Counted from the whole stretch's first letter, positions 12,311 through 58,946 are shown. The stretch: 62,246 nt of DNA, filler included, from Kipferlia bialata (GCA_003568945.1; 8 parts of 7 records of this genome joined end to end with filler, not necessarily neighbours in it), one strand, 5' to 3'. The notes: generated by a model not told the origin, from the letters alone. Numbers and translations: made by a program.

Positions 12311-12791
12311 TTTTTTTTTTTATATAATCCCCCCCCCCCCCCCCCCCCCCCCTATACCCAGTGCTTATCTTGTCTGCGTGACTGTGTGTTTCTTCTTCAT
12401 TGACACTCATTGTATATATGACTGTGTTACAATTGTATGTTTACCATATAGTCGTATATCCTCTATCCACTTACACCAGTGGGGCTGTGCCATCATATAT
12501 ATGGGTCTGGCCTATATCGTTGAGATACCATCACACACACTCTCTCTATATATGTATATGATTGTGCACTGATTCCAGTGGGGCAATGCCATCACTGGTG
12601 GATCTACCTCCTGTGTCGTTGAGACATCCTCTCTCTGTCTCTCTATCTATATATATATAATTGTATAATTGTGTTCTGATTCCAGTGGGGCAATGCTATT
12701 ACTGGTGGCTCTGCCTCCTGTGTCGTTGAGACATCCTCTCTCTCTCTCTTTATATATATATATGTATATATCCTCTATCCACTTACACCAG

Positions 12792-13327
12792 TGGGGTAAT
12801 GCCATTACTGGTGGATCTGCTTCCTGTGTCGTTGAGACATCACCCTCTGAGTATAACGGAGCCCCCAGCTTTATACTCACACACACTGCAAATGGCATAT
12901 TCGAGACCACAGTGACAGGTTGGTTTTGTATACATACACATATACACACATATATATGGGATATATGTATAATGCGTACACTGCTGATGGTATATTCGCG
13001 ACCACAGTGACAGGTGTGTGGGTTTCACACCCTCCCCTCCCCCCCCTCTCCCATATATTTATATATGTGTGTGTCTTTTTACTGACCCACAGGAGATGTC
13101 GACCTGGCCACTGTCGGAGACTATGTCCTGTACCCCAGCTATGGAGAGACAGTCATATCTATGGTATGTGTCTCAGATGTATGTTTGGGTCTCTCTTCCC
13201 CCCCCCCCCCCCCCCCTCCCCAACCCCAGGTGCCGACGTCAATGAGATTGACCCCCGGCTGAGGGAGCTGGAGAGACAGGGTACCCCATCGCCAAAGGGG
13301 GAGGGCAAGGAGGCGGATCTGTGCTAG
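12792..13327 (+). CDS. 3' end of a spliced hypothetical gene
   Basis: Exons approx. 12792-12918, 13093-13163, 13230-13327; ends ...KGEGKEADLC*. Confidence 0.6.
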
Positions 13328-13604: not shown

Positions 13605-16376
<2,772 letters not shown>

Positions 16377-17912: not shown

Positions 17913-18012
17913 ATGTCCTGCCCACATTCAACCAGTACATGAGGATACTGGTGGGGATGGGAGGTATATGCTATATATACACAAGATATGTATTTATCTA
18001 CAAGATTCAGTG

Positions 18013-18044
<32 letters not shown>

Positions 18045-18933
18045 TTATATACTTCTACCCACATTCAACCAGTACATCATGATACTGGCGGGGATGGGAG
18101 GTATGTACCAGTATTCAAGTACATATATATATATATATATATACTATATGTGTACATTCAACCAGTCCATATACTAACCCTCCAGACCCTGTCCCCGGCC
18201 TAGCTGTCACATCCAACTATGTCAGAGTCATATATACATATATGTATATATATATATATATATAGAGGAGAGTATATTTATATATATGATATCCCTCTCT
18301 TACCCTAGACCCTGTACCTGGCCTAGCTGTCACATCCAACTATGTCAGAGTGATGTATGCACTCACACTGGGGATATCAGTAGGGGATCCTGTGTTGATC
18401 AGGTATAGTATATATCTTCACAATGATTCATTCATATCTATCTCTCCCTCCCTCCGTCACTCTCAATAAGTACCCTATCATACTTTGTTTCTTACGCGAT
18501 ACCCTTTCTTTACCGTTTCTTACGCGATCAGGGGTGGCAGAGGCACTGGCAAGTCCTATGCAGTGTCTGCATACGCACTGAAGCAGAGTGGCATGTCGAG
18601 GTATGGGTCTATGTATGTATATTTGTGTGTGTGTTAGTACCTAAGTATATGAAGATTGCAGGGCTATCAAGGGAGGTCTGCGGATGGATTTTGGTTTGTA
18701 TATACATTATCAGGGTTGTATATATATATGTATGTATCCACTCTGACACTAGTGTTCTGTGCCGCGTGTCCCCTGCCACCAACATATATCCATCACGTTC
18801 TATTATCTAAATATGTATATATATGTGTGTGTGTATGTAGTTATATATCCTCATATCAGTGTCCTGTGCCGCGTGTCCCCTGCCACCAGCCCCAGGGACA
18901 TACAGGCACTGTCATCAGCCGCAGAAGGTATAC

Positions 18934-18968
<35 letters not shown>

Positions 18969-20814
18969 TATATGATATATATGGTATATATACATATATA
19001 TGTACACCAGTCCCAGGGACATACAGGCCCTGTCATCAGCCAGAGAAGGTATATCTGCATATATATGTGTATACAATATATAGTACACATATGTCTTTGA
19101 CTCTCTCTAACTCCAGCCCCCTCTGATGGATCCAGCCATGGCAAGACACACACTACTGTCTCTCTCTTTCTATATGAATATATATGTATATATATATCTA
19201 TATCTATATATGTATTAATACATATATCTCACCCCAGCCCCCTCTGATGGGTCCAGCCATGGCAAGACAGGACTTGGGATAGACTTGGGTGAGATACAAT
19301 ATTGATATAATAATGATAATATATACACATATATATATATATATATATATATTAGACCTGGGTAGGAGTCATCATACCGCATATATATCGCACCTTTACT
19401 CACATGCTACATGATTTCCCCCCCTCTTTCCCCTAGGTCGCACCCTCTCTGCCACCATGGTGTCCACTGTGATCTCTCTCCACCCACCCCCCCTCTCTCT
19501 CTATATATATACTATAGTGCTTACTGTCAGGTCGTACCCTCTCTGCCACCATGGTGTCCACTGTTGCCTCCATGGCCACATCCATGGCATCCATGTCTAG
19601 GTATAGGTTGTGTATACGCCTGTGTATATACAACACTATATATTAATTCAAGTACATTGTGGCATCAATATCAAGGTATAGACATAGATAGAGTCTAATC
19701 AATAATAATATGTAATAGGTAGATTCATATATATATGCCTATGTACTCTTAAATGTCATTATATACAATTATATATATATATGTATATATCTAATCATGT
19801 CAGGTCGATGCTGCCCTCCAGTCCCTCCCTGACACATATGAATATATTATATATACTATTACATATATATATATATATATATTCTTTAATGTGTACTCTT
19901 GTGATACCGGGACACTTACCATCAGGTCGATGCTCCCTTCCAGCCCCTCCCATCACCCCTGTACACCCATATATATATATATATATATATACCTATATAT
20001 ATATATATACACATACATATATATATATATATATGTCTATCTAATCCTGTCAGGTCGATGCTCCCCTCCAGTCCCTCCCTGGCCCTCACCCACATGGACC
20101 AGCACGGGTATGATATATGCAAAGAGTATTTAGTGTATACAGTAACTTTTCGTACTTTCATTGTTTTAGTATCCAAACATACCATCTTGTATGCACTCAG
20201 ATTCAGTGGATACATATATCCATATCTATATCTAACCCTAGTAGCAATGGCGCCACTCTTGTTGTCCTAGACACTGTAGACCATACCAACACCCATACCA
20301 TATATATATATAAATACTATACTATATATATACATATATAACTAACCCTAGGTCTAATGGTGCTACACTGGTTGTCCTAGACACTGTAGACCAGACCAAC
20401 ACCCATGCCATGCACGCACTCAAGGAGAGCATCGACTACATCCAGCACCCAGTCATGCTATCTAGGTATATATAGTGTAGTATACAGTGTATATACTCTA
20501 TACTATAGTATATGTATAGTGTATATATACTATATATACCCATGCCATGCACGCACTCAAGGAGAGCATCGACTATATCCAGCACCCAGTCATGCTATCA
20601 AGGTATATATAGTGTAGTATACGGTGTTTATACTCTTTATGTCTCTCTCTCTCTCATGTATATGTAGTCTCTCACATACCAGGTGTGTATTAGACCCTGA
20701 GCTTGAGCAGAAGTCTCTCTCTCTCTCTCTCTCGCGCTCTCTCTCTCTATATATATACATATATATCTCACTCTAGATGTGTATTAGACCCTGAGCTTGA
20801 GCAGAAGGCCCTGG

Positions 20815-20848
<34 letters not shown>

Positions 20849-21462
20849 AATATCTAACCCTAGGTGTGTATTAGACCCTGAGCTTGAGCAGAAGGCCCTG
20901 GTGGTACAGCTCAACCCACTGAAGGAGGAGGATTTCTACCAGGTATACATCAGTATACATCAGTATATACGAGTCTGTTTATTAGTGTGTTTACAAGTAT
21001 AGTTCTGGCCCTGGTATGGTACAGCTCAACCCACTCAGAGAGGAGGACTTCTATCAGGTGTGTATGTGTATGTATATTGTATGTATTGTCATGTATCCAA
21101 GGGGATGACTAGCCTTACACCCAGGTCTTTGACTCTCTCTTCTCCACATTTGTCATTAGTCTATTTGTGTTAATAGTGGTATCACTGGGTATTAGTGTAT
21201 ACCTCACCCTCTCTGCCTACGTTGCGTATTCTTGTGTACCTCACCCCCAGGTCTTCGACGCTCTCTTCTCCCCCGAGGAGATACTCACAGGGGACACACA
21301 GGAGATATGTCAGGTAGTGGTTATATATGAATGTGTATGTATATATACAATTGTATGTATACATATTGTGCTATGTGAATATTTACCAGTTATACATACA
21401 TGCCTGAGGAGATACTCACGGGGGACACACAGGAGATATGTCAGGTATATATGTATGATATA

Positions 21463-21494
<32 letters not shown>

Positions 21495-22276
21495 GATATG
21501 CTGGACTATGTATATATCTGCATGTTATGTATATATATGCCTGATTAGATACTACAACACCCAGGAGATATGCCAGATATCAGTTCAGTCTCGAGTATAT
21601 ATGTAGACTCTATTTGCAATCAGAAATTATTATGTATACACATATTACTATGAGAGCCTCATCCCAGTCCCTGGCCCATGCCATGGTCATCCTGAGAGTG
21701 CATTTGTGTGTACTATTACAGACATGATATTCATATATATATATGTATATATGTATACATTGCATTCATATATTGTGTCTGACACTCAGTCCCTGGCCCA
21801 TGCCATGGTCACTCTGAGGGAGTCCCCAGCATTTGCAGGTAATGTGTACATGTATATTATATAATACGTGTAATGTATTTCCTGTGAGATGGTGAGATCA
21901 GAGCTGTTATACGGGCAGTAATTTGTAATTGAAAACACATATTCTCTCTCTCTCCTATACATATATACATACATATTTTGATCATCTAGGTCTCGGGGAG
22001 ACATACGCCCTAGGCTCCAACCTATTCTTCCTCTCTCTCTCTGTCTCTCTCTCTCTCTCTGCAATACTCTTAAACTTATGATCGTAGGTATAGGCTTAGG
22101 AGAGACCTACACCCTGGGCTCCAACCTAGTCTATCTCTCTCTCTCTGTCTCTCTCTCTCTCTCTGTATATATGTGTGTATTGGTGCTGATCGTAGGGATA
22201 GTCCTAGGCGAGGCCTACACCCTTGGTTCCAATATATTCTCTCTCTCCATAATAGACTTAAACTAACAATTCAGGT

Positions 22277-22313
<37 letters not shown>

Positions 22314-22566
22314 AATACTCTTTACTAACAATTCAGGTATAGGCCTAGGAGAGGCCTACACTCTAGGCTCCAACATATTCTTCCTCTCTCTCTCTCTCTC
22401 TCTCTCTTCAATGCTCTTCAACTTAAATTTCAGGTATCGGTCTTGGAGAGGCCTACACCCTAGGCTCCAACATATCCCCCCTCTCTCTCTCTCTCTCTCT
22501 ACTATGTAGTATTACTTACCAACCAGGCATTGGCCTAGGAGAGGCATACACTCTAGGCTCCAACCT

Positions 22567-22603
<37 letters not shown>

Positions 22604-22918
22604 AATACTCTTAAACTAATGATCGTAGGTATAGGCCTAGGAGAGGCCTACACTCTAGGCTCCAACCTGGTCCTGGGCTCTAACATAGTCTCTCTCTCTC
22701 TCTCTCTTGGTGATGAGGAGGACATAGATGGTATAGTGGAGATAGATGGTATTGAGGGTATAGAGGGTCTAGATGGTCTAGAAGGCCTGGGCGGAGAGGA
22801 AGAGGGGGAGAGAGAGACTGGCTCCAAGAGACTCCTCTCTGACTGGCAGTGTCTGCACAGACACCCCGAGATAGTCGCCAAGGTGCTATATATATATACA
22901 TATGGACGTATATATAAG

Positions 22919-22949
<31 letters not shown>

Positions 22950-23006
22950 GTATATAGGATACGGTGGTAGTGTCTACACAGACACCCCAAGATAGTGGCA
23001 AAGGTA

Positions 23007-23058
<52 letters not shown>

Positions 23059-23135
23059 GTATATATGTATATACACAGTTTACTGCCTCACCTTTAGGCC
23101 GCCAAGCTAGCCTTCTCTGCCTTCCTGCGTGAACA

Positions 23136-23171
<36 letters not shown>

Positions 23172-25768
23172 CATATATATTAATATATATACTACCCCCA
23201 GGCCGCCAAGCTAGCCTTCTCCGCCTTCCTGAGGGGTAGTGAGACAGAGGTGCAGAGGTGCATGGACACCCTGACTCAGGCATTAGAACCATGCTTAGGA
23301 GCAGATAGGTATTAGGATATATATATATATATATATGCATGTATACCTATATATATATATGGAGAGAGACAGAGGTGCAGAGGTGCATGGACACCCTGAC
23401 TCAGGCATTAGAGCAATGTCTGGGTACAGATAGGTATTATTGATACTATGTATAAACTGGTAGTATACTATACCTATATATATATACAGAGAGAGAGAGA
23501 GAGAGAGTCTGGGGACAGATAGGTATTAGGATATATATTCTTGCTATGGTCCGCTTATATATTGTGTATTCACCCCCAGCCTAGCTCCTGTCTCCAACAT
23601 GGGTCTGTTACTGGGCCACCTCTGCCCTGGCAGACACCCAGTGTCCATATCTAGGGGACCTATTGCTAGAGAAGGTATGTATATATACGTACATATATTG
23701 TATACATNNNNNACCTATTGCTAGAGAAGGTATGTATATATACGTACATATATTGTATACATACACCCAGTCTCCATAGGAAGGTGACCCATTACATCAG
23801 ATGGTATGTGGATACATATATATATATATATGTAATGTTAGTATATGTGTATATAGCAAGAGGACCCATTACATCAGAGGGTGAGTGTATTGTAGTGTAT
23901 TCCGACTTATGCGTGTTTCTGTTTGTCTCACCTTTCGGCAGTGAGAGTGACGATGCTGTCCACCCCATCTATCTATCTATATATATATATATGTCTTCCT
24001 ATATATATACTAATCATAGACAGCGAGAGTGACTCTGACGATGCTGTCCACCCCATCTCAGACTTTGTGGGTCCAACCACAGACAGTGGACACTTCAACC
24101 ACAGGCCAAGGTATATATACATTTATATATATATATAGTATATTCTGTCACTATTTCTATATGTACATAGTATACCTGTCCACAGACAGTGGGCACTTCA
24201 ACCACAGGCCAAGGTATATATATTGTAATCTGTGACCAACCCACCTATATACTCTCTCTCTCTCTCTCTCTCTATGTATATAGTACTATATCTTACCCCT
24301 CAGATTCCTGTATGTGGAGGACATGACCATGGACAGGTCACCATATACACCATTAGATACACCATATATACTCCATATACTGTCTCTTTCTCTCTCTCTC
24401 TCTCTGTGTGTATATATATATAGATATATATACATATACATATATATATATATCTTACCCCTTAGGTTCCTGTATGTGGAGGACATGACCATGGACAGGT
24501 CTCTCTACCACTGGATAGGCCAGATCACAGGTATCTATGCCACTCTGTATTCAAATGTATATAGTGGTAGTTCAATCTATATTTATATAGCTACATATAT
24601 CTCATGCCAGGTCTCTCCTCTTCCCCCGACCAGACCACCCTGCTGGGGTCACCATTCACAAGAGACAGGGACGAGGAGGCTGGGAGGAGGTATTGAATCA
24701 TGTATAAATATATTATATATATAGGACAGTACTTATAGTGATGTATATATATAGTAGTCTATTGACAAGGGACAGGGACGAGGAGGCTGGAAGGAGGTAT
24801 ATATGCATTGATACTTGTATATTATATAGCTTATATATATATATGTACTTGTAGTGTTATATATATAGTGGTCTATTGACAAGGGACAGGGAGGAGGAGG
24901 CTGGGAGGAGGTAGTATATCATGTGTATAGTCAGTGTTTATAGTGGTATACATATCACCCTTCACAAGGGACAGGGACGAGGAGGCGGGAAGGAGGTAAT
25001 ATTTGTATTGGTACTTGTATATTATATATCTCATATATATATATGTACTTGAAGGGTTATACATTTATAGTGGTCTATTGACACGGGACAGGGACGAGAA
25101 GGCGGGAAGGAGGTATTATATCATGTGTATAGTCAGTGTTTATAGTGGTATGCATATCACCCTTCACAAGGGACAGGGACGAGGAGGCGGGAAGGAGGTA
25201 TGTTCCTGTCTACATACAGTAGCCATGCAGTATTCATGTTTCCCTAGTTTACATCATCAAGTGATTGTTGAGTACATTCCCATAATGATACACTCTCACC
25301 ACTAGGTACCGTGACCGTAAGGACAGGGAGATTGCCTCTCTCCTACAGCACCAGGGACAGTGGGTGTGGGGAGGGGGGTCAGCAGGTGTGTAGAGATATG
25401 ACATCACTTCTTTGCCCTCTATATATATAGTTGGAGGATTATGTGTTTTATACTCACTCCAGGCACTCTGGTGTCAGTCACCCCTTCCCTTCCTGTCTTC
25501 AACACCCTGTGTGCATATGCCCAGGCATGGGGCACGGCAGGGGGGGATGCGGTGCCAACACTGGCTGTGGACACACACCCAGGGCAGGTATACACTCTAT
25601 CGTACTATATACTACCCTCTGTAGTATTACTGAAGGCATATATCTATTGGGACCCTTACATGCTAGTCTCTCTCTCTCTCTTCATCTCTCTATTACTGTA
25701 ATTATAGGTCCATCCAGCCTCTGTGGATAAGGATATGAACATCCTAGTATTTGGTGACCCCTCTGACA

Positions 25769-25799
<31 letters not shown>

Positions 25800-26065
25800 C
25801 TCACCTTATAAGGTGCATCCCGCCTCGGTTGATAAGGATATGAACATCCTTGTGTTTGGTGATCCCTCTGACATGGACACGGCCCTAGCACACCCATTCA
25901 CAGTCATGAGGCTCACACTTGGTTAGTATATATATATAGCTATAGAGAGAGAGAGAGAGAGAGAGAAATGTAGTGTATATGGATATGTATATATATATAT
26001 GTGTTGATATGGACACAGCCCTGGCACACCCATTCACAGTCATGAGGCTGACACTTGGTTAGTAT

Positions 26066-26119
<54 letters not shown>

Positions 26120-26594
26120 GTGTATATGGATATATGTACATTAATATACATTGATATGGACACCTGCCTGGCACACCCATTCACGGTCATGAGGCTGACA
26201 TTAGGTATGCTTTTAGTGTATGTGTTCAATTCTGTTGAGACTCTCACATCCCATGTGACGTGTTCACCTTTGTGACTGACAGCCTTGCCCATCCTGCCAC
26301 TATATATATATATATATCCATATTCATATATAAATACATATATCCTACTACTACTATACTATCCTACTACCTCTTACCTCTAGACGATCAACAACCTACC
26401 TATATTAACATCCACTAATATATATATATATATATATAGGCGTGTATATATATCCTACTACTACTATCCTACCTCTTACCTCTAGACGATGTCTTCACCT
26501 TTGTGACTGACAGTCTGCCCATCCTGGCTGCAGCAGCATGTACCCAGGCCAGGGACAGACTGTGGGAGGTATGTATACTAAGATACATATATAT

Positions 26595-26625
<31 letters not shown>

Positions 26626-29110
26626 GAGAGAATGCATGTACCCAGGTATGCATACTAAGATACATCTATAACAATACTTGTGCTATATATTATGAGAGTA
26701 TGAACACAGGCCAGAGACAGACTGTGGGAGGTATATTTCTTTCTCTCTCTCTCTCTCTCTCTAGCCCCCTATTAACCCACTCAGTTTGTGCAGTCTGTGG
26801 GTGAGCGTGCCTTCTGTGGGGTTGTGCAGGACACAGTCACTGAGATCATATTGGAGGCCTTATCTGCAGCAGGCAAGGACTCTACTTATCCTCATTGTTG
26901 TATGTGTTTAGTATTATGTATTATGTATTGACTGATATATATTGTATGATTACTGATATATGCTAACCCCCTAGGCACTCTCTCCACCCTCCTGACTCCC
27001 ACTGGTGACACCGACACACCCAATGCAACACCTGGGACACCAGTGGTCAAGCAGCCTGAGGTATTGATATGCATATGTATACACATTCCTATATGGGTTA
27101 TACAGGTGATTATGTATGCAAGCATTTTCCCTCTAACCCCCAGTCTGATGGCAACCAGTCCATAGTGAGGGAGCACAAGTACACTCCCCTCCCCCTCGAC
27201 GCCTCTGCCATCCTAGCACTGTTCAAGTTCCCATCGCTGCCCTCTAGGGGTGTAGCACTGGCTACTAAGGTACTCACTCTCGTGTAACTATGTTGGGTCA
27301 GACTTCCTCTGGTTATCGTGTAATTGCCTCCACTATTTATGGTGTTTCCTGTGCTATCGTGTAGTGTTTCTTACTCCAGGGCCTGGCTGATGGCATTGCC
27401 TCTAGTGAGGGCCCAGTTAAACATATTGATTCACATCAAATATAGTAATATGTATACTACTTTAGTACTATTGGGTAGTTATTTCTCACTCCAGGGCCTG
27501 GCTGATGACATTGCATCCTGTGAGGGCCCAGTTGAGACTGCCTCCTTGGTCATAGCAAGGAGGGCAATGATCACACTGCTACAGGTTAGTGAGATCATAG
27601 TATCAGTATATATATACGAATATGTATGTATGGTATGGGTATATGTATATTTTCACGTGGGGGACAGACCTGTATATATATATATATATATATATGTAGA
27701 GAGAGAGAGAGAGAGATGCTGACTCCTCCACTTCCTGACCCCCGAGGGTACCATTGAATTATGTGACATATAAATATATATAATAATAATATATATAATG
27801 TTGTTTGTGTATGTGTGTATAGGGAGAGATATTGACTCCAGGTCCTGACCCCTGAGGGCACCATCGCCCCCAGGAGTGCCAGCAGTGGTCTAACCGAGGC
27901 ACTGCAGCAGTACTATTACCAGGTATCGGGAGAGATATGTGTATTATATTGAAGTATGATTGAAGTATGACCGAATTCTCTACCTTACCCTAGCACCAGG
28001 CCCACTTTTCCATCTTCATCTCTCTCTCCATATATATACATACATACATAATATATATATATATATGTGTATGTGTGTGTGTACGTCTAACCCCAGCACC
28101 AGGCCCACTTCTCCATCGGCGCAGTGCTCAAGGACGTGGTGCTACACTCACTAAGCAGCAGCACAAGTACAACCACACCTATAGAGGAGGGAGAGGACAC
28201 GTCTCTACAGTCCCTACAGTACTGGAACGATGTCCACTCCTCTACTAAGGGAGAGAGAGAGATCGAGGCTGATGCTGTACCCTGGGGTGCCCTTGTCTAT
28301 GCACCCAGGCTCAGTGACCCAACAGCACTGGACACAGAGGCATTGAGGGGGCAGCTCAATGTGAACCCAATCACAAGGTATACTGCACATTGTTTGTATG
28401 TAGGAGTGTATATGTATACCCATATGACCCCAGGCACTACTTTGGGGGTCCAGACAGAGACAGGATGTCTGTGGAACTGTTGACACCAGACTCGACAATG
28501 GCCAGGTATTGATACACATACACCATATAGTATATACATATATACGCTACTATACAGTATATATATGTATATATACATGTATAGGGGGAGAGTGTATCAG
28601 TGGATATGGAACTGTTGACACCAGACCAGACTCGACAATGGCCAAGTATCCATACTATACAGTATGTATTATCTTCATTCCCAAATCATCTATTGTCCAC
28701 CGCCGTCTCTTCGAGGACTCTGCAATATATACAGTATATATATAATTATGTATATATTGTAGTGCTATGTAGTATTATTCTATTCCTAACCATCTAGGGT
28801 GCACCACCGCCTCTCTGAGGCCTCTGCTGTGCTGCAGACAACAGACACAGACTCGGTGGCACAGGTATTGAATATATGATAGCCGCTAAGGTATTAAGAG
28901 GTGTTATGTTCATGAATATTTGTTTATGAGTAGTATGCTGTATATATTCATTTCTCACCTAAGGTCCACTCCCCCGTCCTCCTCTCTCTCTCTCTCTTTT
29001 TCTCTATCTCTCTCTCTCTATTCATTACCGTACATCTTTACCTCATGTTCACTCCTCCGTGACACTGACACCCCATATTAGTATATACACATTCGAGTAT
29101 TTTCCACATA

Positions 29111-29147
<37 letters not shown>

Positions 29148-29274
29148 TTCTCACCATAGGTCCACTCCTCCCTCCTCCTCGCTCTCTCTCTCTCTCTCTC
29201 TCTATTCATTTGTGTATTATATATCTTTACCTCAGGTCCACTCGTCTATCCTGTGTGACACTGACACCCACAAG

Positions 29275-29322
<48 letters not shown>

Positions 29323-30117
29323 TCATTAATCTCTATTCAATAATATATATATACCTTCTTCTTACCACAGGTCCACTCCTCCATCACCGATACCCACAAG
29401 GCAGGGTCATATTCATATATATATATATATGTATATGTAATACTATATACATACCTTTACTCCAGGTCCACTCCTCCATCACTGATACCCACAAGGCAGG
29501 GAGGGATGCAGACCTATACACCCATACATACATGTGTATATATGTACGAATATTATATATCTTTAACCCAGGTCCACTCGTCTATTCTGCGTGACACTGA
29601 CCCCCACAAGGCAGGGAGGGATGCAGAGAGTGACACCAAGAGATTCAACATGGTGGTGGTGCTCTACATACCCGTGGACAGCATCAGAACAGGTATTCTA
29701 TGTACATGCCTGCTTATGTATCTCGTTGTATGTTCTTCTCTCTATTCCATATCTCACCCCAGGCTCTGTGCCCCTGTGCCTGACCCCCCCTGGCTGGTTC
29801 AGCACATATGTCACAAACCCATTCCACCATGTAAGTATGGTATATATATACCCATTCCACCACGTAAGTATTGTATATATACATGCACATGTATCATGTA
29901 TTCGTCTATACTTACCCTCTATATAAGTATGTATATATATATATGCTGGTTCAGCACATACGTCACTAACCCATTCCATCATGTAAGAATGGTATATATA
30001 CACTAGTATATGCGTCATGTATTTGTATACACTTACCCTCTCTATATATATGTATATATATATGCCTCCCCCCCCCCCCCCTGTCAGCACAGACGTCACT
30101 AACCCATTCCATCACGT
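17913..30117 (+). CDS. Internal fragment of a very large, many-exon gene with an AAA+-like P-loop (midasin/dynein-related style)
   Basis: Spliced exons 18309-18402 and 18532-18600 give GDPVLIRGGRGTGKS (Walker A); 20352-20465 gives a Walker-B-like LVVLDTVD. Dozens of further short exons lie on the same strand. Confidence 0.6.
21990..22690 (+). repeat. Array of 7 diverged copies of an acceptor plus exon 5' end (GIGLGEAYTLGSN), separated by (CT)n
   Basis: Copies start at about 21990, 22088, 22196, 22337, 22434, 22527 and 22629 (the last is the intact exon). Confidence 0.92.
24655..25200 (+). repeat. Array of 6 copies of an exon 3' end plus GT donor
   Basis: ACAAGGGACAGGGACGAGGAGGCNGGRAGGAG|gta ending at 24689 (intact exon), 24796, 24910, 24995, 25112 and 25197. 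Confidence 0.92.
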
Positions 30118-31259: not shown

Positions 31260-34200
31260 TTAGTACACCTTCTTGATGGCGGTGGCCAGGAGGAGGGGGT
31301 TGCGCCAGTAGGGGCTGACGGGGATGACCTAGGGTCAGGGACAATAGTACGTATCCACAGAACGAGTACATAGAACAGCACATAGAGAGTGATAGTATGG
31401 ACCTCCTTCTAGCAGAAGTATGTATGTATACATATAGTGAATAGGATGCAGTATGTAAGGTACCTTCTTGTCCTTGCACCCTGCCAGTCCGTACACAGCC
31501 ATCCTGGCGGCCCTGACAGACATCTCCTCAGTAAAGGACATCTCGTCCTCAATCTCTACGTACCTGAGAGTAAGACATATTCACATACATACATATATAT
31601 ACACATATACTGAGAGAGAGAGAGAGACGGACATCTCGTCCTTAATATAGACATACCTAAGGGTTAAGTGAGAGAGAGAGAGAGATAGAGGCAGAGAGAG
31701 ACACCACGTACTGTCCAATCATGGCCAGGTTGGTAGAACCCTCAGGGATCACAGGGGGACGGTCGGCCATGGCACTAGGGGTGAGATCCATATATACGAA
31801 GGCACCTACACAATACAAGGGAGTAAACTAGTTAGTGAGTTCATGTATATATATATGCATATATATATATATACCCACCGGTTGTTGAAGTGTGCATCGA
31901 TGTATGGCATGGAGCATGGGATCACATTGACGATGTCCTGCTCGTGGCCCTGGGGGGTGAGACAATACACACATTACTACCCACTCTGACAAGTATTTGA
32001 TACTATAACAAGGATTGAGTAATGTGACTAGAACCTACACGTACCTCCATCCTGAGGTGGCTCATGAGTTCAGTAAAGATGTCTGCACCGGTGGCCTCCC
32101 TGACAGTCTTGTTGACATAGTCACCTGGGTCAGCAGGAGTATCAGTACAGTATATCAGTCAGTGTATGTACTGATATAGACATAGTCACCTGTGATGTCT
32201 GTGTGCAGCATGTATCCCCAGAACACAGTCTGGTTCTTGGGCTGGCCCCTGGGGGTTAGACACTCATACTATGATGTGTATATGATATGTATGTGTATTC
32301 ACTATATATATAGCACAGTCTGGTTCTTGACCTGGCCCCATATATATGTTTCAGCCAGTGAACATCCATAGTCAGTATATATGGTAGAACCACTACATAC
32401 ACTCTACACATATAGAGTGTACCTGAAGTGTGGCTGGGCAGGTACAACGATGGACATGCGCCACCTGGGGGTGAGGGGACATATAAGGTTAAGTAGAGAG
32501 CACTAAAGGGGACACACACATAGAGAGAAAGTAGAACGTCTACTGCCTGGGGGTGAGGGAAAAGAGGCAACGAGCTATATATACATGAGATAGAAGGAGA
32601 GAGAGAGACTCTCACACCTAGAGTCCACCAGTGTGCACAGAGCACCGGAGCCTGGCACATTGCCAGAAAAGGCCTCGATCTCCTAGGGTATCAGCAAGGG
32701 TATCTAAAATCTCAGATAGATTTGAATGCGTGTCCACATGGTATACACATATATAGATAGAGAGAGACAGAGTATAGTGTGTTACCTTGAGCAGTCTGTT
32801 TCCCTTCATGGTCACTGTGAATGAGTGCCAGTAGGACTCCTCCCACTTGCCTGGGGGTAAGAGGATACCTATTATAAATATGTATATATATATATACTAC
32901 TGCACAAGTGAGGGGACATCCACTATCCCAACCTGCGAATGGCTCTGGGTAATGGTCCTATTACTAATGGATACACAATAATGGATGAATATTTGTATAC
33001 TGCAAATCATTATACCTCATACTAAGTATATAAATATGTACATAGGAGTATATATATATGAGACCTAATACGTATATATATATTTATATTTACATACATA
33101 AAAATAGTATATGTATATGAGACCTCATACACTTATCATACCTGCGAATGGCTCTGGGTTGCCAAACACACCCTCCCTCTTGGTGCAGAGCTTCCTCCAG
33201 AGGTCAAAGGACTGGGGGTGAGACATAAGGGATTGGCGCATTACTCACAGAGAAATAATGAACCATACACCACGTAGAGTATCTATATATGTGTATGGAT
33301 ATATATACCTTGGGGTTCTCTGGGGCAGGGGGTGCGGCATGGGTGAGGTCACCCAGGACAGCACAGTCACACATGGCGCCTGGGGGTAAGGTATATATAT
33401 ACACTAGTATATATACATTTAGAGAGAGAGAGGGGGAGGGGGAGAGAGATGTATATGCATGCACATACCGTTAGTGATGCAGCACATGTCCTGGGGTCTG
33501 AGTGTGATGGTCTCTGGGGTGCCTCTCCTCTCGATGGACAGACCAGTCACAGTGATGCCTAGGGGTGAGGATAGATGAGGAGACATTGAGGGAGATCTGG
33601 GAGAAAACACAAATACATACACATGTCAGTAAATGGGATGATGGTAATGCACAATGTACCTTCGCCTGGTGCCAGAGTGACGTCCTTGACGAGGCAGCCC
33701 AGCTGGAAGTCGACGTTCTCACCCTGAGGTCAGTGACATGACGGCGGAGTATTCAAGATAGAACTTGCATATACAGGATGTGTGAAATTATATATATACA
33801 TCATTACCTCGAGGTGCCTCTGGAGAGGCCTGATGACAGACTCGTACTGGTTGAGAGGGGTCCTGGCAACGGCACCCAGGGTGTCAAACTTGTTGAAGAA
33901 CTTGATGCACCTGGAGTGAGAGAGGGAGTGATAGAGAGAGAGAGAGATGGAGAGGGAGAGACAGAGGGAGAGAGCATGCTATTTGCTGAAGAACTTGATG
34001 CAGCTGGAGTGAGAAAGTATGGTACTGTAAGTACTAATATAAGGCGGTGATAAGAGGGAGAGTACCCCCACCTGCGCATGTATCTCTTCATATTGAACAC
34101 TGTATATACACGTATCTACAGAAAGACAGAGACTAGAATATATACATGCACAGATATAGAGAGATGAGGTGAGAGAGATGGAGACTCCACCGGCGCATGT

Positions 34201-35182
34201 ATCTCTTCATCTCAAAGACCGAGGACCAGGGCTGGAAGGCAAAGGTGGTCTGCCACATGAACCAGAAGTTGGTCTGGGGTGAGGGAGAGGAAGATACGGG
34301 GGGGGGGTATACTGCTGCATATGGTAGAGTGTGAGAATGTTACATGCATATATATATATATATAGAGAGAGAAAGAGAGAGAGAGACCGACCTTGTAGAA
34401 GTGGGGGTGACCACCAAAGAAGTCATCGATGGACACGTTGTCAAGGCTGGGGGTGAGACAGTGGTACGACACAGAGAAGACTGCACTGACACGAGTGGCA
34501 ACATGTAGTCCTATCCAAACACACCTCTTGTAGGACACTGTGGACAGCTTGGCCAGCATACATATCTATACATATATCAATACAAATACATATATATATA
34601 TATATATACATATACAAAGGTGTATATGTATACCTCTTGTAGGACACTGTGGACAGCTTGGCCAGCAGCATGCGGCACTTGTTGCACAGACCTAGGGTCA
34701 GAGAGGTGAGAGAGGGAGAGAGAGACCACAGAGTATCACATGTACTCTGCAATACGTGGTGAATATATATATATATAAGCATACACACATACCCATGTCT
34801 GTGGCCTCCAGGATGTTCCTGTCCTTGTCCACGAGTGTATCACTGTATAGTATATATACATACACATATATAGTATGTATATACATACACATACCCATGT
34901 CTGTGGCCTCCAGGATGTGCCTGTCCTTGTCGACCAGTCTGGCACTGGAGCAGGTGGGGTGGGCGGCGTCAAAGGCCACAATCTCCTGAGGGGTTAGAGA
35001 GAGAGAGAGAGAGATAGAGGTGGGGTGGGCAACGTCAAAGGGCACAATCTCCTTGAGGTCAGATACACAGTCAAATAGAGAGAGAGAGAGAGAGAGAGAA
35101 AGACGTGGGATAGGCGGCTTCAATGGCAACACTCCAGGGGGGTTAGAGAGAGGGAGACCGTGCGGAATATATGTGTGTGGGG

Positions 35183-35216
<34 letters not shown>

Positions 35217-35333
35217 CTGTACCTCGTATGTGCTCTTTCCGAGCTGGTCGATGGAGGGTGTGGTGCTGAGGAGGTCCCAGAAGTTCTCGTAGAGGTCGAG
35301 GTTGAGCATGCGTCCACCACGGCAGACAAAGCC
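31260..35333 (-). CDS. ohyA: Oleate hydratase (MCRA family) coding region, about 19 short exons
   Basis: GFVCRGGRMLN..YENFWDLLSTTPS, TNFWFMWQTTFAFQPWSSVFEMKRY, RTPLNQYESVIRPL, SFTEEMSVRAARMAVYGL. TAA at 31260. Confidence 0.92.
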
Positions 35334-39678: not shown

Positions 39679-42002
39679 ATGTACGACTCAATAGTGTCCT
39701 GCACGATTCCAGCCAAGCTTGGAGGGCTAGGTGTGAATGTATATGTTGACTCAATGCAGTGGTTAGCTATAGAATCTGAATAATCTTTGAATCTCACACA
39801 CCCCTTGTTAACTGGATAACATAGCCTATCAGTGGCGTCAGTATATATATGTATACTACCTTCGCCGACGGTTTCATTAACAGACATGTCCACGGCATCT
39901 CACTATTAAGAGCAAGCTTTTAGCCAGTCATAAGCCAGTATGACACCGAAATGTTGATAGTGTCATTGACACCGAGAAATGAACCTCACCCTCAGGTCTG
40001 GCCGGCCAGATGTTTGTGGTGACTGCGACCATGGCTGATGGCGAGACTGTCGACCTTGTCCTTAAGACCTCTCCCGCTGGGGCTAGGATGGCTGCAACCA
40101 GGTGTATGGTGTCCACGTTTTCTTTCTTCTTTGTCGCTTGGGATTGTCTCATTTCAGGGAGGTGGATCTGTACGATGCTGTTCGTAAGGGCACTATGCCC
40201 GAGGTGGCCAAGATATGCCCCATGGTTCTGACTGAGGAGGCTGACTACGAGACTGGCGAGATCAAGGTCGAATAGTGATCAGTCTATTTGTGACATTGTC
40301 ACACAGGACTTGCACCAACCTCAGGTTCTCATGGAGAACCTTGTCTCCGCTGGGTGCCTAGGAGTCAACTTCATCTGTGGCAACCAGATATGGGGCATGT
40401 CTGACGAGCAGAAGGCCAAGGTACTGAGTACTGGGTGCCCCATGCTTCTCGCCTGACCTCCTATCATTCTGATCCCAGATCCAGGACAGCACCTTCGACG
40501 TGGTAGAGGGGGCCTTTGTGTCTGCTGCCAGGTACAAGTCCTCCCGCTCTCTCAAGGGTACCCATGTCACTCGGAAGATTGTCTCCGAGCGTACCGTGTA
40601 GCTTATCTCTGACCGCTCATCCAGGATGCACGCTGCCACCTGGAATGACCCCGAGATCATGGCCCAGGGCTGGCTCAAGGGCGTCTCCTTCTTCGACGGT
40701 ACAGGTGGGTGGGTGTAGCGCTCTACCAGGATTTCCATCAGGTTCATTGTTTTACCCCAGGAAAGGAGGCATGGGAGAAGGCCATATTCAATGCCCGCTA
40801 CATGTGGAACAAGGGAAAGGCCAGGTACCCCGTGGTCTCTCCCTCTCCTACCCCTCCGCACCCATGCCCCCCCTCACCCCCCTAGGTTTGAGTCTGAGGA
40901 GCAGATGACCCTGTCCCCCAAGCTGCTCAAGCTCATGGACGACTCCCTGGCAGCCGCATCTTTCCAGGTGGGATAGTCAATCTGGCACCATCTATAGTAC
41001 TACCTCTGTCTGACTCAGGACATGAACGAGCGTGTCACCGACCCGTCCACCCCCTATGCCCTCTGCCACGGTGACTTCCACGCATCCAACATGTTCCTGA
41101 GGTAGTGTGAATGTAATGAGGCCTATATATATCAGTGTATATACATATATAGATAGTTATTAATATGCATACATAAGTAATCATCTGTATACTCATATAC
41201 ATCCATCATGTTCCTGAGGTGGGGAGGCACTCATGTTACTAGCCACTATTGTTTACGCGGGTCAGCACGGGTCTCCTGCCACTTGCTCTTACTCTCAGGC
41301 CCAAGACTGAGGGCGAGGAGGGAGATGTCGAGAAGATGGCTGACCGTATCGTCATGGTGGACTGGAGCGAGGTACGTGTCTATACTGTGTGACAATCTGA
41401 CACCTTGAGACACTCTGTATGTATGTACGTATGTGGGTGTGTACTCGTCCCCACCCCAGGTTGGTGTCTGGGAGCCCACGACCGACCTGGCCCAGATGAT
41501 AGTATCGGACACAAAGCCAGGTACGCAGTTGGATAAATGTATGTGTTGACACTAACGAAGGCTAGACTCAACTACTCCATTACTATGGAACACGTCACTC
41601 ACCCTCTAGAGATCATGGAGCGTACCAGGGAGCTGCTGGAGTCCTACCACGCCGCCCTGATCCGCTACAACCCAGCCATTGAGGCCGAGTACCCCATGGA
41701 CAAGTGCTGGGAGAGGTGGGGACCTATACTCTATGGGAGCTGAGTGATTGTCCTGTCTAACCTCTGGCCACTCATCCCCCAGGTTCTGCCTTGATGGTGC
41801 CTCCCGCTGGGTGTGGCTCTTTGCCATGCTCACTGGGTTCCCCATGCCCCCAGCTGCCCTCCAGGTGGGTGGTCTCTCTCAGTGTGCCATCAATTACAGT
41901 GCTCTACTCACTCACCCTCAGTACTTCCACGACCAGTTCCTGAGGTTCGTGGAGCTGCACGGGGACCACCCCATCTACCCCCTGGGCCAGGTCGTCCTGT
42001 AA
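39679..42002 (+). CDS. Ecdysteroid-kinase-like / aminoglycoside-phosphotransferase-like small-molecule kinase (start uncertain)
   Basis: DLVLKT, VLMENL, YALCHGDFHASNMFL, IVMVDWSEVG...PTTDLAQMI, ELLESYHAAL across many short exons. Confidence 0.82.
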
Positions 42003-52785: not shown

Positions 52786-54878
52786 TCACTCACTCACTCT
52801 CTGACTCTCTCTGACTCTCTCTCTTCCCCTTCCTCCTGCCTGACCCCCAGCAGCAAGAACCCCGCTGTCCGCATTGAGACCATGGGTCTCCTTGCTAGGC
52901 TCTGGGCAGGTGCAGAGGCCATAGGGGAGCAGTGGGTGGGGTACAAGCCCCTCACCCCTGTGTACATGAGGAGACTGGTGACTGGGGGTGCCCTGTCAGA
53001 GGTCACAAAGCCCAAGCTAGTGGCTAGGATTGTGGTACGTCTCTCTCTCTCTCTCTCTCCAGGTTTCCCATCACTCTTCCTTTGTATTAACTATATTAGT
53101 ATTTATATATTCTATATATATTAATATATTTTCCCCTAACCCCAGTCCGACCTGTCTGCCCAGGCCGCAGATGCCGCTGAGATCATCCGGACAGCTGCCA
53201 TCCAGTGCATCACCAGCCTAGGCATGACAGGACACGTACCAGATGAGCAGCTGCTAGAAGGATTGGACAAGAGGATCAGGGCCAAGGTGGAGGCCGCCCT
53301 AGCCAAGAGAGAGAGGGCAGACCAGGGGGGGGAGGCCCCTGAGGCCAAGGAGGCCAAGGATACCAAGGGAGAGAAGGAGGAGAGAGAGAGAGCCAAGCCC
53401 AAGGGCAGGCCCAGGGCCACCTCGATTGGGGGCAGGAGTAAGGCACCCGAGAGGGAGGCAGCGGCCGAGGAGGAGGACCCTTATGGGAGGCCCGACGTCT
53501 CTGACAAGCTCGGCTTGGAGTCCCCAGTCATTGTGAAGCTGGCGGTACGGCTGATTCGCACTGTCTCTCTCTCCCTTACCTCACCTTACACTACTGATCT
53601 TTGCCTTACCCCAGCACCCAGACTGGCATATGCGCCTGGAGGCCATCAAGGAAGTGCAGGCTCTGTTTGCCCAGCACAACTACTCAGTCCAGCCCAGACT
53701 GGGGGAGCTGCCTGGGGTGCTGGTCAACCGCTACAAGGTGCCAAGTGATATCTGGTATTAGTGCATATATATATGTATATGAATAGCACTTATGATACTG
53801 ACCCCAGGCTGAGAAGAACGCCAAGCTGGCCCCCCCTCTGATGGCCATGACAGCTGATGCGCTCAGGTCCCTGAGGCCAGTCGAGAGGTATGGGTGTGCA
53901 TATCACTCAATATATTGTGTCTATATAGTTGTGTTGTGTATATGCCTCTACCCATCAGGACCCGCTATGTGCAGATCCTGGCCATGCCCGTGATCCAGGG
54001 CCTGGCAGACTCCAAGGCAGGGTACCTGAACACAGTGGAGAGGGTGCTGACACTGCTGACGGGCAGTGAGGAGGACATGGGTGCGTATTATTGTATACAT
54101 TATATATTATATGTATCTATATATATGTGAGTACTGCTGACGGGGAGTGAGGAGGACATGGGTATGTATATGTATGTGTAGGTATAGCGTCATTGCATAT
54201 CGGTGATGTCATACTACTGTATAGCTCTCACCGTCAGGCAATGTCCTGCTAGATGGTGCCGTCCAGTCAGGCCACAGGAACCTCTTCCACATCATAGCCA
54301 GCGGCCTCAGCGCCAAGAAGTCTCGGTACGCATACACATATATACATACACCCCCCTGTCCTTACCCTAACTGTCTGTGTGCACAAATATTATACATATA
54401 TGCATATACTACCATTCACATATACTACCTGTGCTCCTTACCCTCAGTGTGCACACCAAGGCCCAGTACACACATGTTTTCAAGAAGTCATATTGATGAT
54501 AACACATAGTCTATACACCCATACGTTTTTACCACCCTGTCCTTATATTAACTCTCAGTGTGCACACCAAGGCCCAGTGCTACCTCCTCTCCTGGATAGC
54601 AGGCCAGTTTGTGCAGTACAAGGACGAGGAGACACCCAGGCCTGACCACAAGAGGATAGAGCTCATGCGTTCCCTCATCGAACCAGTCATGCAGTGCGTA
54701 TAGTGTATATATATGCCCCCTACTCCTCCTCTCTCGCCCGTCCCCTCTCTAACCCAGCCACCTGAACGATCCCAACCCCGGACCCAGGCGTGATGCAGAG
54801 TCACTGCTGGCCTCCATCATACACGTGGACCCCACCCATTCTGTCAAGAGGGTCAAGGAGTACGTCTCTCTCTCTCTC

Positions 54879-54917
<39 letters not shown>

Positions 54918-57900
54918 TCTACCCCCAGGTGCCATGAGAACATGACTAAGGCATCCAGGGACAAGATCCAGCCCTTGGTGAACAGGCTGTGCGAGGCAGA
55001 GAGGCAGAGGGAGAGAGAGAGAGAGAGAGAGAGGCAGGCCGCAGAGGTCAAGAGGGAGCCCGAGAGCACTGCGGAGGCTGAGAGGTATGCTAGTGGTGGG
55101 ATATCGACTGTGGTTAGTCCTATCCCTGCTGGTAGGGTAGGGCCCAGTGTAGTACGTAAGCTTAGTAAGCCTAATAGTCGTATAGGGAGGCCTGTGACAG
55201 GGTCTAGAGTGGGTAGCAGGAGTGGTGTGAGGGTGGGGAGACCCCGGCTGGCCGCAACGACTAGGGCTGAGAGAGAGAAGAGAGAGGCAGAGAGAGAGAA
55301 GAGGGATGCAGAGAGAGCAAGGCCTCGCAAGCCAAGAGTTACTGGATACTGAGTGTATAGCTGTACCAATGAATTGACTGTCTCATTCATTGGTGCAAGT
55401 GGAGTTGGATAATGGCGTTAGACACACTAACTCCAGAAGAGTACCGTCTTATGCGCTGTTAATACATACATATATGTGTTCTTGTACCTGTCTCTCTGAC
55501 CCTTCAGGAAGCCAGAGCGCAAGTCCCACCCCGGCCGCACCCACAAGCGTAGTGTGAGTGAGGTTGATGTGGCCGAGGAGCTAGAGCGGGAGAGAGAGGC
55601 AGAGGCAGAGGCTGCCAAGCCCAGCAGACTACCCACCAAGGGCAAGGGCCTAGTGAGGAGGGACGCCAGGGGTAGGCCCATCACACAGGGTGAGGAGGTT
55701 GAGGTGGAGACAGAGCCCACGGCATCACACTTTGTGGACCCCTCTAGACACCAGAAGGAGAGGGTTGGGAAGACCCACAGGTCCCCAGTGCGTGGTGTGC
55801 ACCCCAAGGCCAAGGGGAAGGCAGAGAGGGAGAGAGAGAGAGAGAGAGAGGAGGTCGAGCCCCCCGTGGTCACCCCCATCACCCAGCAGCCTGAGGCAGA
55901 GGCAGAGGCAGAGGCTGAGTTTGATGACCACCTTGGCGACCTGCCCCCCACACCCAAGCTGCCTATACCCAGCTACAAGGTATATATTTATATATAGTGT
56001 ATATAGTGTTTAGTGTATATGTATGTAGTACTGATACCAGGTGGAGGACGTGCAGGACAAGGCCGAGGTGGAGAGGGCGGAGAGAAGAGAGGCAGAGCTG
56101 CAGGGTATCAGGACACAGATCGCACAGCTGCCAGCAACCCCGAAGCTAGCACAGCTAGGTACTATACCATTTGAATATGTGTCTCTATATGGTTGTTAGC
56201 TTTGTCAATGTACCTCTCCCCCACCCCGGTCTCTGACCCCTCTCTCCCTCTCTCCCTCTCTCTCATCCCAGACACTCGGTCTCTGACCCACTGCACCGAC
56301 TCACTGGACGCCCTGGTCAACAGACTCATGTCGAACGAGTGCAGGTGGGTACTGGTGTGAATGTTACATACTATATACCCCATACCCCCGTCACCTCCCT
56401 GGACCCACGGATATATATATTCTTACATATATTCTTACCCCCACGACCTGGTACGATGATTCCATGGAGGAGGCCTATTCTCTCTTTCTCTCTCTCTCTC
56501 TCTCCCTTACCCCCAGGACCTGGTACGATGATGCCCTGGAGGAGGCCGATGCCGTCGAGGGCATCATCTCCATCCTCAAGGTGGGTGTGGATAATTACTA
56601 CATTCAATAATATTGTATAAGTATTAATTGTTTCATAGGTGTGGATGTTTAATAGTTATATTAACACTATAATTACTCTATTAATAGTATTGCATTGACA
56701 TCTGATGAAAGCACGTCGTGACAGCCATCAGAGAGAAGCCAGCCCTGCTCAAGGACTCCGACTTCCCCCCTCGCCTCGTCAGCGGGGTGCTGAGGTATAT
56801 ATATGTATATATATGTATATTAATATTCAAATAGTCCTCTGCTATAACTCCTCCCCCTCCCTCCATGCTCTTTCCTTGGGTGTTTTACTCTCTACTATTC
56901 TCCCTCCTCCTCACCCTCTCAGGGCTCTCCGTATCCACACCCCCGTCACGGCTAAGTTCCCAGTGAGACTAGTGCGCTATGGAGCCATAGCCCTGGCAGA
57001 GGTCTTCGAGAGGCCCCAGGCCTGTGGGTTCTTCTCAGCATCAGAGATCAGGTATATAGTGTATATTTGTGACATATATGTATTATATATATATATTGTT
57101 ATAGGCCTCAGAGATCAGGTATGGGATGGATCTATACTATACTGGTTTCACATTATACAATAGTACTATTATAATTGTATGTGTTATAGGTCAAGGCCTC
57201 CGGGTTATTCTCAGCCTCAGAGATCAGGTATATAGTAGTGGATAGGTGTATGTTATAGGTCAAGGAAAGTTGTCTCTGCTCTCCCTCACTGTCAGAATCA
57301 TGCTGTTTGAGGTGTTCTCCCTCATGCACTGGGTGGGCACAAAGCCAGAGGAGCTCAGGTATGGTACAGCATAGTAGTACACTCTGTTTACTACGCTATT
57401 GTATACTTCAGAGTCTGTTGGGTATTAAGCCAGAGGAGCTCAGGTACATAGCACATAGCAGTATACTATGTTCTATATACTAGCTTTATTGTGTGTACCC
57501 GATATACTATGTACTATATGTATTGTACTCATGTATTCTAACCCACTAGCTCTGGTGACTATGGCACCGAGGCCCAGCTGAGGGATGCCATGGGTCTACT
57601 CAACAACATCATCCTGGAGGTAGGGGGTTGTATGATGCATTAGTGTATGGTGTGGATAGTATAGTGCTATATACATGCCTGTATGATGTACTGACCCCAG
57701 ACCACTGACAACTGTGACCCCACAGTATGCTTCGAGGCACTGCAGTCACTGCTGAGGTGGGTGTACAAACACATATGTATAAGAATTCACTAATATATGT
57801 TACATTAAGCTCAATCAATGTATTAATATAAGTACCAGAGTTTGCAGTCCCTCCACAACTCAACCGTCAAGTGCATGTTTGTGATGTGGCAGATAGACTG

Positions 57901-58250: not shown

Positions 58251-58451
58251 TTTTGTGGGGGAGAGAGGAAGGGGGGGGGGGGGGGGGGGGGAGGTCCAGT
58301 ACATACAGGAGAGGTGGGATGTATATGAATATGGAGATTATACCTCACCTCCTTCTTTCTCTCTCTCTCTCTCTCTGTCTCTCTGTCTCTTTACCTCTAA
58401 CCCACTAGGGAGGATGAGTCCCAGCGTGTTTGGGGCAGGATTATGTTTGTG

Positions 58452-58497
<46 letters not shown>

Positions 58498-58623
58498 GTA
58501 ATATTCATATCTCCTTCTTACCCTCAGAGAGGACGAGTCCTAGCGTGTGGAGGAGCTGGTCTACTTCCTCTCTCTCTCTCTCTCCCTCCCCTCAGTCCTT
58601 GTTAACCACTACTAACTCTCTAG

Positions 58624-58946
58624 GGAGGATGAGTCTCAGCGTGTTGAGGAGCTGGTCCAGCAGTTGGAGGCAGCACACGAGGCCAATGCAGCCATGTACA
58701 CACAGACACAGGTATGAATAATAGTATATATGTATATATACTGTAATATTTATAGACATTCTACATTAGAAGGGTATATACCTTCATGAGGCCAACGCAG
58801 CCATGTACACCCAGATATGTGGACATATATATATATATATATGACTATAACGTATGTGTTATCATTTGAATAAGATATATATATATGTATCTCATGTACT
58901 ATATATTTAGTCTCACACTCAGGGTGGGAGCCAGTCCCAGGAGTGA
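58624..58946 (+). CDS. Last two exons of an unidentified coiled-coil gene
   Basis: EDESQRVEELVQQLEAAHEANAAMYTQTQ|GGSQSQE*. Confidence 0.6.

Follow-up and report, generated by a model that had tools for sequence, protein, structure and literature searches.

The window analysed here is a stretch of 62,246 nucleotides made of Kipferlia bialata contigs chained through N-linkers, and the feature of interest lies within the contig at 17913-30117. The exon at 28097-28375 matches one single database protein at 100% identity, K. bialata KIPB_004976 (partial, 976 aa), and a hand-built chain of 31 exons translates to this protein at 976 of 976 residues. Thus, the reading frame was set independently of the exon copies described below. 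The host gene fragment occupies 17915..29830 on the plus strand and comprises 31 annotated exons (exons 1-13 being based on annotation), 24 of which carry at least one partial copy, giving 46 copies. It is a piece of a very long transcript (RNA contigs of 6190, 168, and 6648 nt) and contains a P-loop. Pfam returned only a weak dynein AAA_7 match for the host protein, under the curated cut-off (E = 1.8e-4), and no match for six single exons of other genes in the window. Searching for longer relatives of KIPB_004976 gave no match, and a scan of metagenome contigs with the host protein gave 33 pattern matches and 0 confirmed relatives. The genome was published as a short-read draft with a diploid k-mer profile and 124,912 introns (PMC5874029), and that paper's main text leaves duplication, tandem, microsatellite, and synonymous all unmentioned.

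Exon 20 of this gene lies at 25813..25921 (plus strand, 109 nt, phase 0 to 1, AAG acceptor, GT donor), between exon 19 of the annotated chain (25463..25587) and exon 21 (26486..26568), which has copies of its own at 26255-26296 (5′, AG lost, 1-nt indel) and 26697-26730 (3′). Three partial copies surround exon 20 on the same strand. The 5′ copy at 25708..25769 (exon nt 1-62) keeps its own AG acceptor, differs from the exon by seven silent and no replacement changes, and runs into a (CT)n tract without a donor; the spacer that follows (25770..25812) holds this tract together with the live branch site and acceptor. The inner 3′ copy at 26005..26057 (exon nt 57-109) has a GT donor, four silent differences, and a flank that matches the live flank at 0.88. 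The outer 3′ copy at 26152..26204 also has a GT donor, with seven silent differences and two replacement bases in one codon (Ala/Cys), and its flank identity of 0.52 is at the level of unrelated introns. The 5′ copy and the 3′ copy overlap by 6 nt of the exon. A preliminary description, made from the DNA alone, had reported seven of seven and four of four differences as silent in the first two copies, a third copy silent except for one codon, and a 5′ copy that lacks a donor and ends in microsatellite; all of this is reproduced in the independently fixed frame. Pooled over the three copies, 18 of 20 differences are silent against an expected 0.43, and the p value of 1.7e-5 is to be read with exon 20 as the most extreme case in the window. 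With exon 20 set aside, 134 of the 206 differences in the window are silent (p = 8e-11).

Transcript evidence was drawn from contig set X2, whose RNA label is a guess and which was read as spliced RNA because its joints coincide with the annotated introns. One RNA contig is identical to the window over 25811-25920, and it fully accounts for the depth of the bins on either side (49.6 and 8.44 expected, 49.6 and 8.45 seen); therefore, the middle copy is the live exon. A further RNA contig joins 25587 to 26486 and omits exon 20, at a depth of 22.8 versus 64.9 for inclusion (~26%). Skipping leads to a frameshift with a stop seven codons on. No other alternative joint is listed for the aligned part of the ~13-kb transcript, and the skip may reflect weak nonsense-mediated decay. 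Another RNA joint agrees with a GC-AG intron at 26872-26975, 3′ of exon 22.

Distribution of partial exon copies in the window

A scan anchored at exon ends, covering seven gene models and 98 exons of the window, found 65 partial exon copies flanking 38 exons. Copy-bearing exons number 24/31 in the focal gene and 5/22, 1/1, 1/2, 6/18, 1/12, and 0/12 in the others. These six other models are our own predictions, with frames not based on RNA but free of internal stops after the correction of one donor; two predicted mini-exons in models B and E were dropped, being copies themselves. The count of 65 leaves out copies that contain indels or whose start is unanchored (for example, at 29371, 29466, 28695, and 23940). 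In a control, the same search of focal-gene exons against non-adjacent introns gave 0 matches in 784 pairs. Outside the focal gene, two 5′ copies and one 3′ copy surround the exon at 12792-12918 (12579..13013, plus strand), and the same arrangement is found around the exon at 58624-58711 (58409..58820, plus strand); five copies lie on 5 of 22 exons of another plus-strand gene (54133..57443), and seven on 6 of 18 exons of a minus-strand gene (31629..35051), all in our own predicted models. The translation of this last, intron-rich gene (31269-35333, minus strand) presumably resembles bacterial oleate hydratase, also called myosin-cross-reactive antigen; the gene is possibly a lateral transfer that gained many introns and copies. 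Two genes with short introns, at 13761-16237 (minus strand, which we take to be a pyrophosphate-dependent phosphofructokinase look-alike) and 40067-41990 (plus strand), have GC3 of 0.85 and 0.78 and carry one and no copy, respectively, on 12 exons each; for comparison, GC3 is 0.63 in the focal gene, with copies on 24/31 exons. Genes with high expression may have been purged of copies.

In length, the copies range from 20 to 71 nt; their median spacing is 110 nt (IQR 97-128), and 89 of 90 self-hits are less than 1 kb apart. Each carries its own intronic flank and lies at a median of 74 nt from the adjoining splice site. Focal-gene introns without copies measure 56-129 nt, and each copy adds ~111 nt of length. 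Polarity is strict: 5′ parts occur only upstream and 3′ parts only downstream of the exon, with 0 cases of the reverse in the scan, where the single match was the contig-edge exon 1 itself. In 7 of the 11 exons that have both kinds of copy, the end of the 5′ copy is no more than 11 nt from the start of the 3′ copy (p ~0.002), and such two-sided exons are not over-represented (8/10/4/7, p = 0.72). At inner junctions, a microsatellite lies within 4 nt at 0.29 versus 0.29 and within 12 nt at 0.65 versus 0.45, the latter being a weak signal. It has to be considered whether the copies descend from full tandem duplicates, that is, mutually exclusive exons that were both live for long and were truncated later. 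Such a history would yield silent-biased divergence, saturated flanks, and kept splice sites; however, random truncation should leave parts of the wrong polarity too, and no intact full-length duplicate was seen among the 98 exons, making this origin very improbable.

Four X2 contigs on the focal gene, at least 99% identical to the live exons, join across copies through GT..AG introns, with 0 differences from the live exons at 26566-26783, 27267-27493, 27581-27839, and 28503-28796, and the RNA loose ends at exons 14 and 17 correspond to the live versions. Absent RNA depth on copies was not counted as evidence, except where a contig joins across a copy. These joints bear on the proposal that a minority of molecules currently uses the copies, whether by splicing of a non-canonical kind, by template switching at the RNA level, or by a regulated rearrangement of the DNA at some life stage. 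Splice signals and frame are intact in 54/65 copies, and low use would escape contigs, which drop rare variants. Against such use, the RNA contigs join across the copies, a splice dinucleotide (GT/AG) is present at the inner end of only 3/65 copies, and no DNA joint removes a copy. Minority use is thus improbable, and the RNA-level use raised in the preliminary description is without support.

The preliminary description had also allowed that the assembler concatenated separate haplotypes. The genome is a short-read draft of a diploid with long microsatellites, and the assembly does drop sequence, as the 69-nt exon and the young copies described below illustrate. DNA contigs cover exon 20 at a depth of 337 and its outer 3′ copy (contig 26129-26292) at 365, so that the direct check reached one of the three focal copies, the other two lying in simple-repeat zones. 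Five single DNA contigs span copy and exon with 0 differences (23843-24239, 24472-24944, 26773-27662, 28092-28855, and 29447-30033), at depths of 365-394, like unique flanks. As the DNA run may be the assembly's own source, contiguity is confirmed but not independence. A second haplotype would, moreover, bring a whole exon, not a truncated one ending in microsatellite, and an artefact of this kind is hardly credible. Neither a joint removing a copy nor an allelic variant on a live exon is listed among the contigs of the one DNA run, and the sequenced strain therefore looks homozygous here.

Between exons 29 and 30 (28864-29572), the RNA contig coordinates need 69 more nt, and no single 69-nt GT-AG exon lies between them in the window. 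Since the loose end after exon 29 is also missing from the window, the assembly and KIPB_004976 lack one in-frame exon. DNA contigs further show extra young copies of the 3′ ends of exon 29 (28820-28881) and exon 14 (23708-23793, at a 5-N gap) that are missing from the assembly, which means that the draft undercounts the youngest copies. The extra exon-29 copy could be heterozygous or a collapsed repeat.

Constraint on codons and splice signals

Conservation of amino acids and splice signals is not expected in unexpressed intronic DNA. Across the 65 copies, 152 differences are silent and 74 are replacements (silent fraction 0.67), with pS of 0.237, pN of 0.043, and pN/pS of 0.18 (0.13-0.25 by bootstrap over 49 families). 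Removing exon 20 gives a ratio of 0.20, taking a single copy from each family gives 0.21 (103:60 silent to replacement), and copies of exons 14-31 give 0.15 (58:25); in genes other than the focal one, where the frames are our own predictions, the signal is weaker (30:26, pN/pS 0.30, p = 0.04). Third codon positions hold 158 of the 226 differences, and second positions are identical at 768/795. For a dead copy beside a live exon, the expected silent fraction is 0.43 analytically and 0.38-0.40 in simulations that apply the same detection rule at all ages, and a neutral pseudo-exon fragment would show a silent fraction of ~0.4 and a pN/pS of at least 0.5. The contention of the preliminary description that selection at the protein level acts on the copies, or did so until recently, held on every test (0.67 versus 0.39-0.43 silent), and the comparison that it had set, with a neutral expectation of ~40%, comes out above that value over the whole 62-kb window.

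These figures also weigh on the simplest account, in which the copies are ordinary dead duplicates and the bias is due solely to selection on the live exon, possibly combined with an elevated rate of silent change in exons (CpG decay, for instance). Each of the 10 changes found only in the live copy is silent, as this account would have it, and CpG o/e in the CDS is 0.36. Against it, the null predicts ~55 silent differences where 152 are seen, and changes private to the inner copies of arrays are themselves silent-biased (10 silent to 4 replacement, p = 9e-4 versus neutral). CpG hypermutation of live exons was rejected, as only 12 of the 152 silent differences correspond to CpG decay in the live copy. 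Together with splice motifs that persist beside saturated bases, these results leave ordinary dead duplicates with very little probability.

Replacement differences lean towards live-GC/copy-AT (44:12), whereas silent ones do not (53:68; p = 2e-5), as if slight neutral decay had been laid over the divergence of two working sequences. An in-frame stop occurs in only 4/65 copies, and collapse of the copy onto its exon would give an open frame in 54/65, without amino-acid change in 27. Along the copies, pS is 0.31 near the splice site versus 0.23 near the junction, a gradient that is confounded by trimming.

The splice signals are kept as well, with AG in 30/35 upstream copies and GT in 28/30 downstream copies (58/65 in all). 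A branch-like motif precedes 0.90 of intact copy acceptors, 0.90 of live acceptors, and 0.13 of random intronic AGs; donor scores of copies equal those of live exons, and acceptor scores are 3.8 for copies, 6.4 for live exons, and -9.4 for random sites. Identity is ~0.9 in the exon part and falls at the splice junction; the 25-nt flanks match at 0.65/0.63 versus 0.58/0.59 for unrelated sites, with only 13/65 clearly closer than unrelated. The -3 base differs in 14/30 copies versus 32/177 two-fold C/T silent sites (p = 0.0014). Signals that are kept while adjacent bases are near saturation suggest a spare splice site that has been working for longer than the exon part has been diverging. The flanks would then be older than the exon parts, although constrained silent sites could be an alternative cause. 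The copies are constrained at the protein level and at the splice level; they are real, beyond chance and beyond the neutral null, and provide the basis from which we infer a mechanism.

Proposed recycling of spare exon ends

It is proposed, with a probability of about 0.55, that the copies are spare exon ends: within a diverse population, out-of-register recombination would turn silent ends into working ones and back on different chromosomes, a recycling step that we infer from a single strain. The cycle would begin with a backward non-homologous jump, through template switching or polymerase-theta end joining, that duplicates ~110 nt across an intron-exon boundary; alternatively, a whole exon with its flanks would be dropped into a break in the same exon. 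Only products with one complete exon would survive, which would account for the strict polarity observed. The shared 20-70 nt would then permit out-of-register homologous exchange. Upon collapse, the spare acceptor or donor and its codons would become live and exposed to selection, while the reciprocal product would have the live end parked as a new spare, with arrays being built in this way. Since exchange would refresh the exon parts, these would come to resemble live alleles, in line with the silent-biased pattern seen, and the intron flanks, not being exchangeable, would age towards saturation with working signals retained. A thin layer of AT-biased decay (~4-5%) would be the record of the time spent silent, and both versions would have spent most of their history as working exon ends. 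Since only one version can be the working one on any given chromosome, the two were most likely in use on separate chromosomes.

The main competitor is a one-off capture, in which frozen pieces of a diverged allele or a hybrid parent were inserted during break repair and have been dead since, with no recycling. Capture accounts for the silent bias, the kept splice signals, the polarity, the abutting 5′ and 3′ halves (7/11), and the AT-biased decay, and, by our own estimate, both it and recycling require silent diversity of the order of 0.2. However, it implies that flanks and exon parts are of equal age, yet the -3 base has reached saturation, against a difference of 18% at two-fold sites. The copy arrays also speak against it. 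At 21984..22570 (plus strand), six 5′ copies of exon 12, whose live start is 22629, form an array with silent states that differ from copy to copy. This array is mosaic, with discordant relationships of flank and exon part: the copy at 22088 has a flank that is 96% live-like and an exon part with five differences, and the copy at 22337 has an identical exon part and a different flank. Its six silent variants exceed the supply of two parents. Five 3′ copies of exon 17 (live end 24689) at 24761..25197, plus strand, fall into two alternating types, and the RNA loose end corresponds to the live version. At least three synonymous states are present in six alignment columns, and more than two live versions must therefore have contributed. 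Capture without recycling is accordingly unlikely, if less so than any other rival. A monotonic age ladder, with the nearest copy the youngest, was considered for the arrays and is not general. Within exon 12 itself, at 22653-22710, the annotation-based sequence has an in-frame tandem duplicate of 18 nt that differs at silent sites; a (TC)n tract coding Ser-Leu repeats comes after it.

Among the routes put forward in the preliminary description, duplicate-and-collapse turnover and the capture of diverged alleles fit best and may be two faces of one process. Plain conversion between a dead copy and the live exon fares worse, as it alone cannot lower pN/pS or keep differing acceptor motifs that work; by our own equilibrium argument, conversion with a permanently dead copy drives pN/pS near 1. 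Published gene lists fit recycling without being proof of it. Metamonads lack classical end joining and fornicates use Dmc1, not Rad51 (PMC8516963); the genes listed for K. bialata include Spo11, Dmc1 (four entries), Rad52 (five entries), and PolQ, but no Ku70 (PMC8516963 supplement), and the organism is reported to be diploid (PMC5874029). Several observations count against recycling: the sequenced strain showed neither a collapsed nor a copy-free haplotype, the coexistence of copy-bearing and collapsed haplotypes for long enough to saturate the flanks is left unexplained, genes other than the focal one give a weaker signal, exons flanked by copies on both sides are not enriched, and microsatellites show little close-range enrichment. 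Extended to the genome, the proposal becomes more tentative and somewhat less probable than recycling itself: a genome-wide reservoir of unexpressed cassettes of splice site plus codons (~110 nt), kept functional by recombination cycling, may largely build the long introns, so that a single genome would preserve many alleles that were once live in a recombining population of high diversity.

Relation to known systems

Mutually exclusive tandem exons are neighbouring copies with mainly silent divergence, conserved splice signals, and diverged flanks, whereas the Kipferlia copies are half exons with a single splice site and are not found in RNA contigs. Silent cassettes that serve as conversion donors are known from Borrelia vls, trypanosome VSG pseudogenes, and chicken pseudo-V segments. 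These are unexpressed partial copies that stay in frame since recombination can activate them, and they diversify one protein at a dedicated locus. The Kipferlia copies are likewise unexpressed with the frame preserved (a stop in 4/65) but differ in that the protein is conserved and that copies occur in six of seven unrelated gene models.

Internal gene duplication and intron gain by tandem duplication were reportedly described by Gao and Lynch in 2009. Internal and partial gene duplication, including intron gain by tandem genomic duplication, has been reviewed (PMC3443670), and the process likewise involves a short head-to-tail intragenic duplication that is tolerated as the extra copy is spliced out, but there an exonic segment is duplicated and its AGGT supplies the new splice sites. 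Anatomically, the Kipferlia copies are a case of internal partial duplication, but the duplicated unit spans a boundary that was already there, without gain of an intron, and the silent copy is protein-constrained. A second parallel comes from the paralogous MDSs of ciliate scrambled genes (Feng et al., 2022, citing the model of Gao et al., 2015; PMC9797194). They are local partial duplicates of coding segments that are interchangeable and buffer mutations, but they are joined by programmed, RNA-guided germline-to-soma rearrangement in each sexual cycle (PMC9797194). The Kipferlia unit is instead linked to splice sites, and the genome already contains the working exon in full. We know of no programmed germline-to-soma rearrangement in Kipferlia. 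A literature search, in whose coverage subscription journals are mostly absent, found no description of an intronic spare-exon-end architecture, which is apparently undescribed so far.

If recycling holds, purifying selection would act through recombination on untranslated sequence, and introns would have a new route of growth (~111 nt per copy in the focal gene). It would also provide indirect evidence, from one genome, that a free-living relative of Giardia outcrosses and has very high diversity. Splicing would, in addition, bypass a near-perfect proximal acceptor in many introns, which would point to exon definition in a lineage whose spliceosome is reduced (87/174 proteins; PMC6679479).
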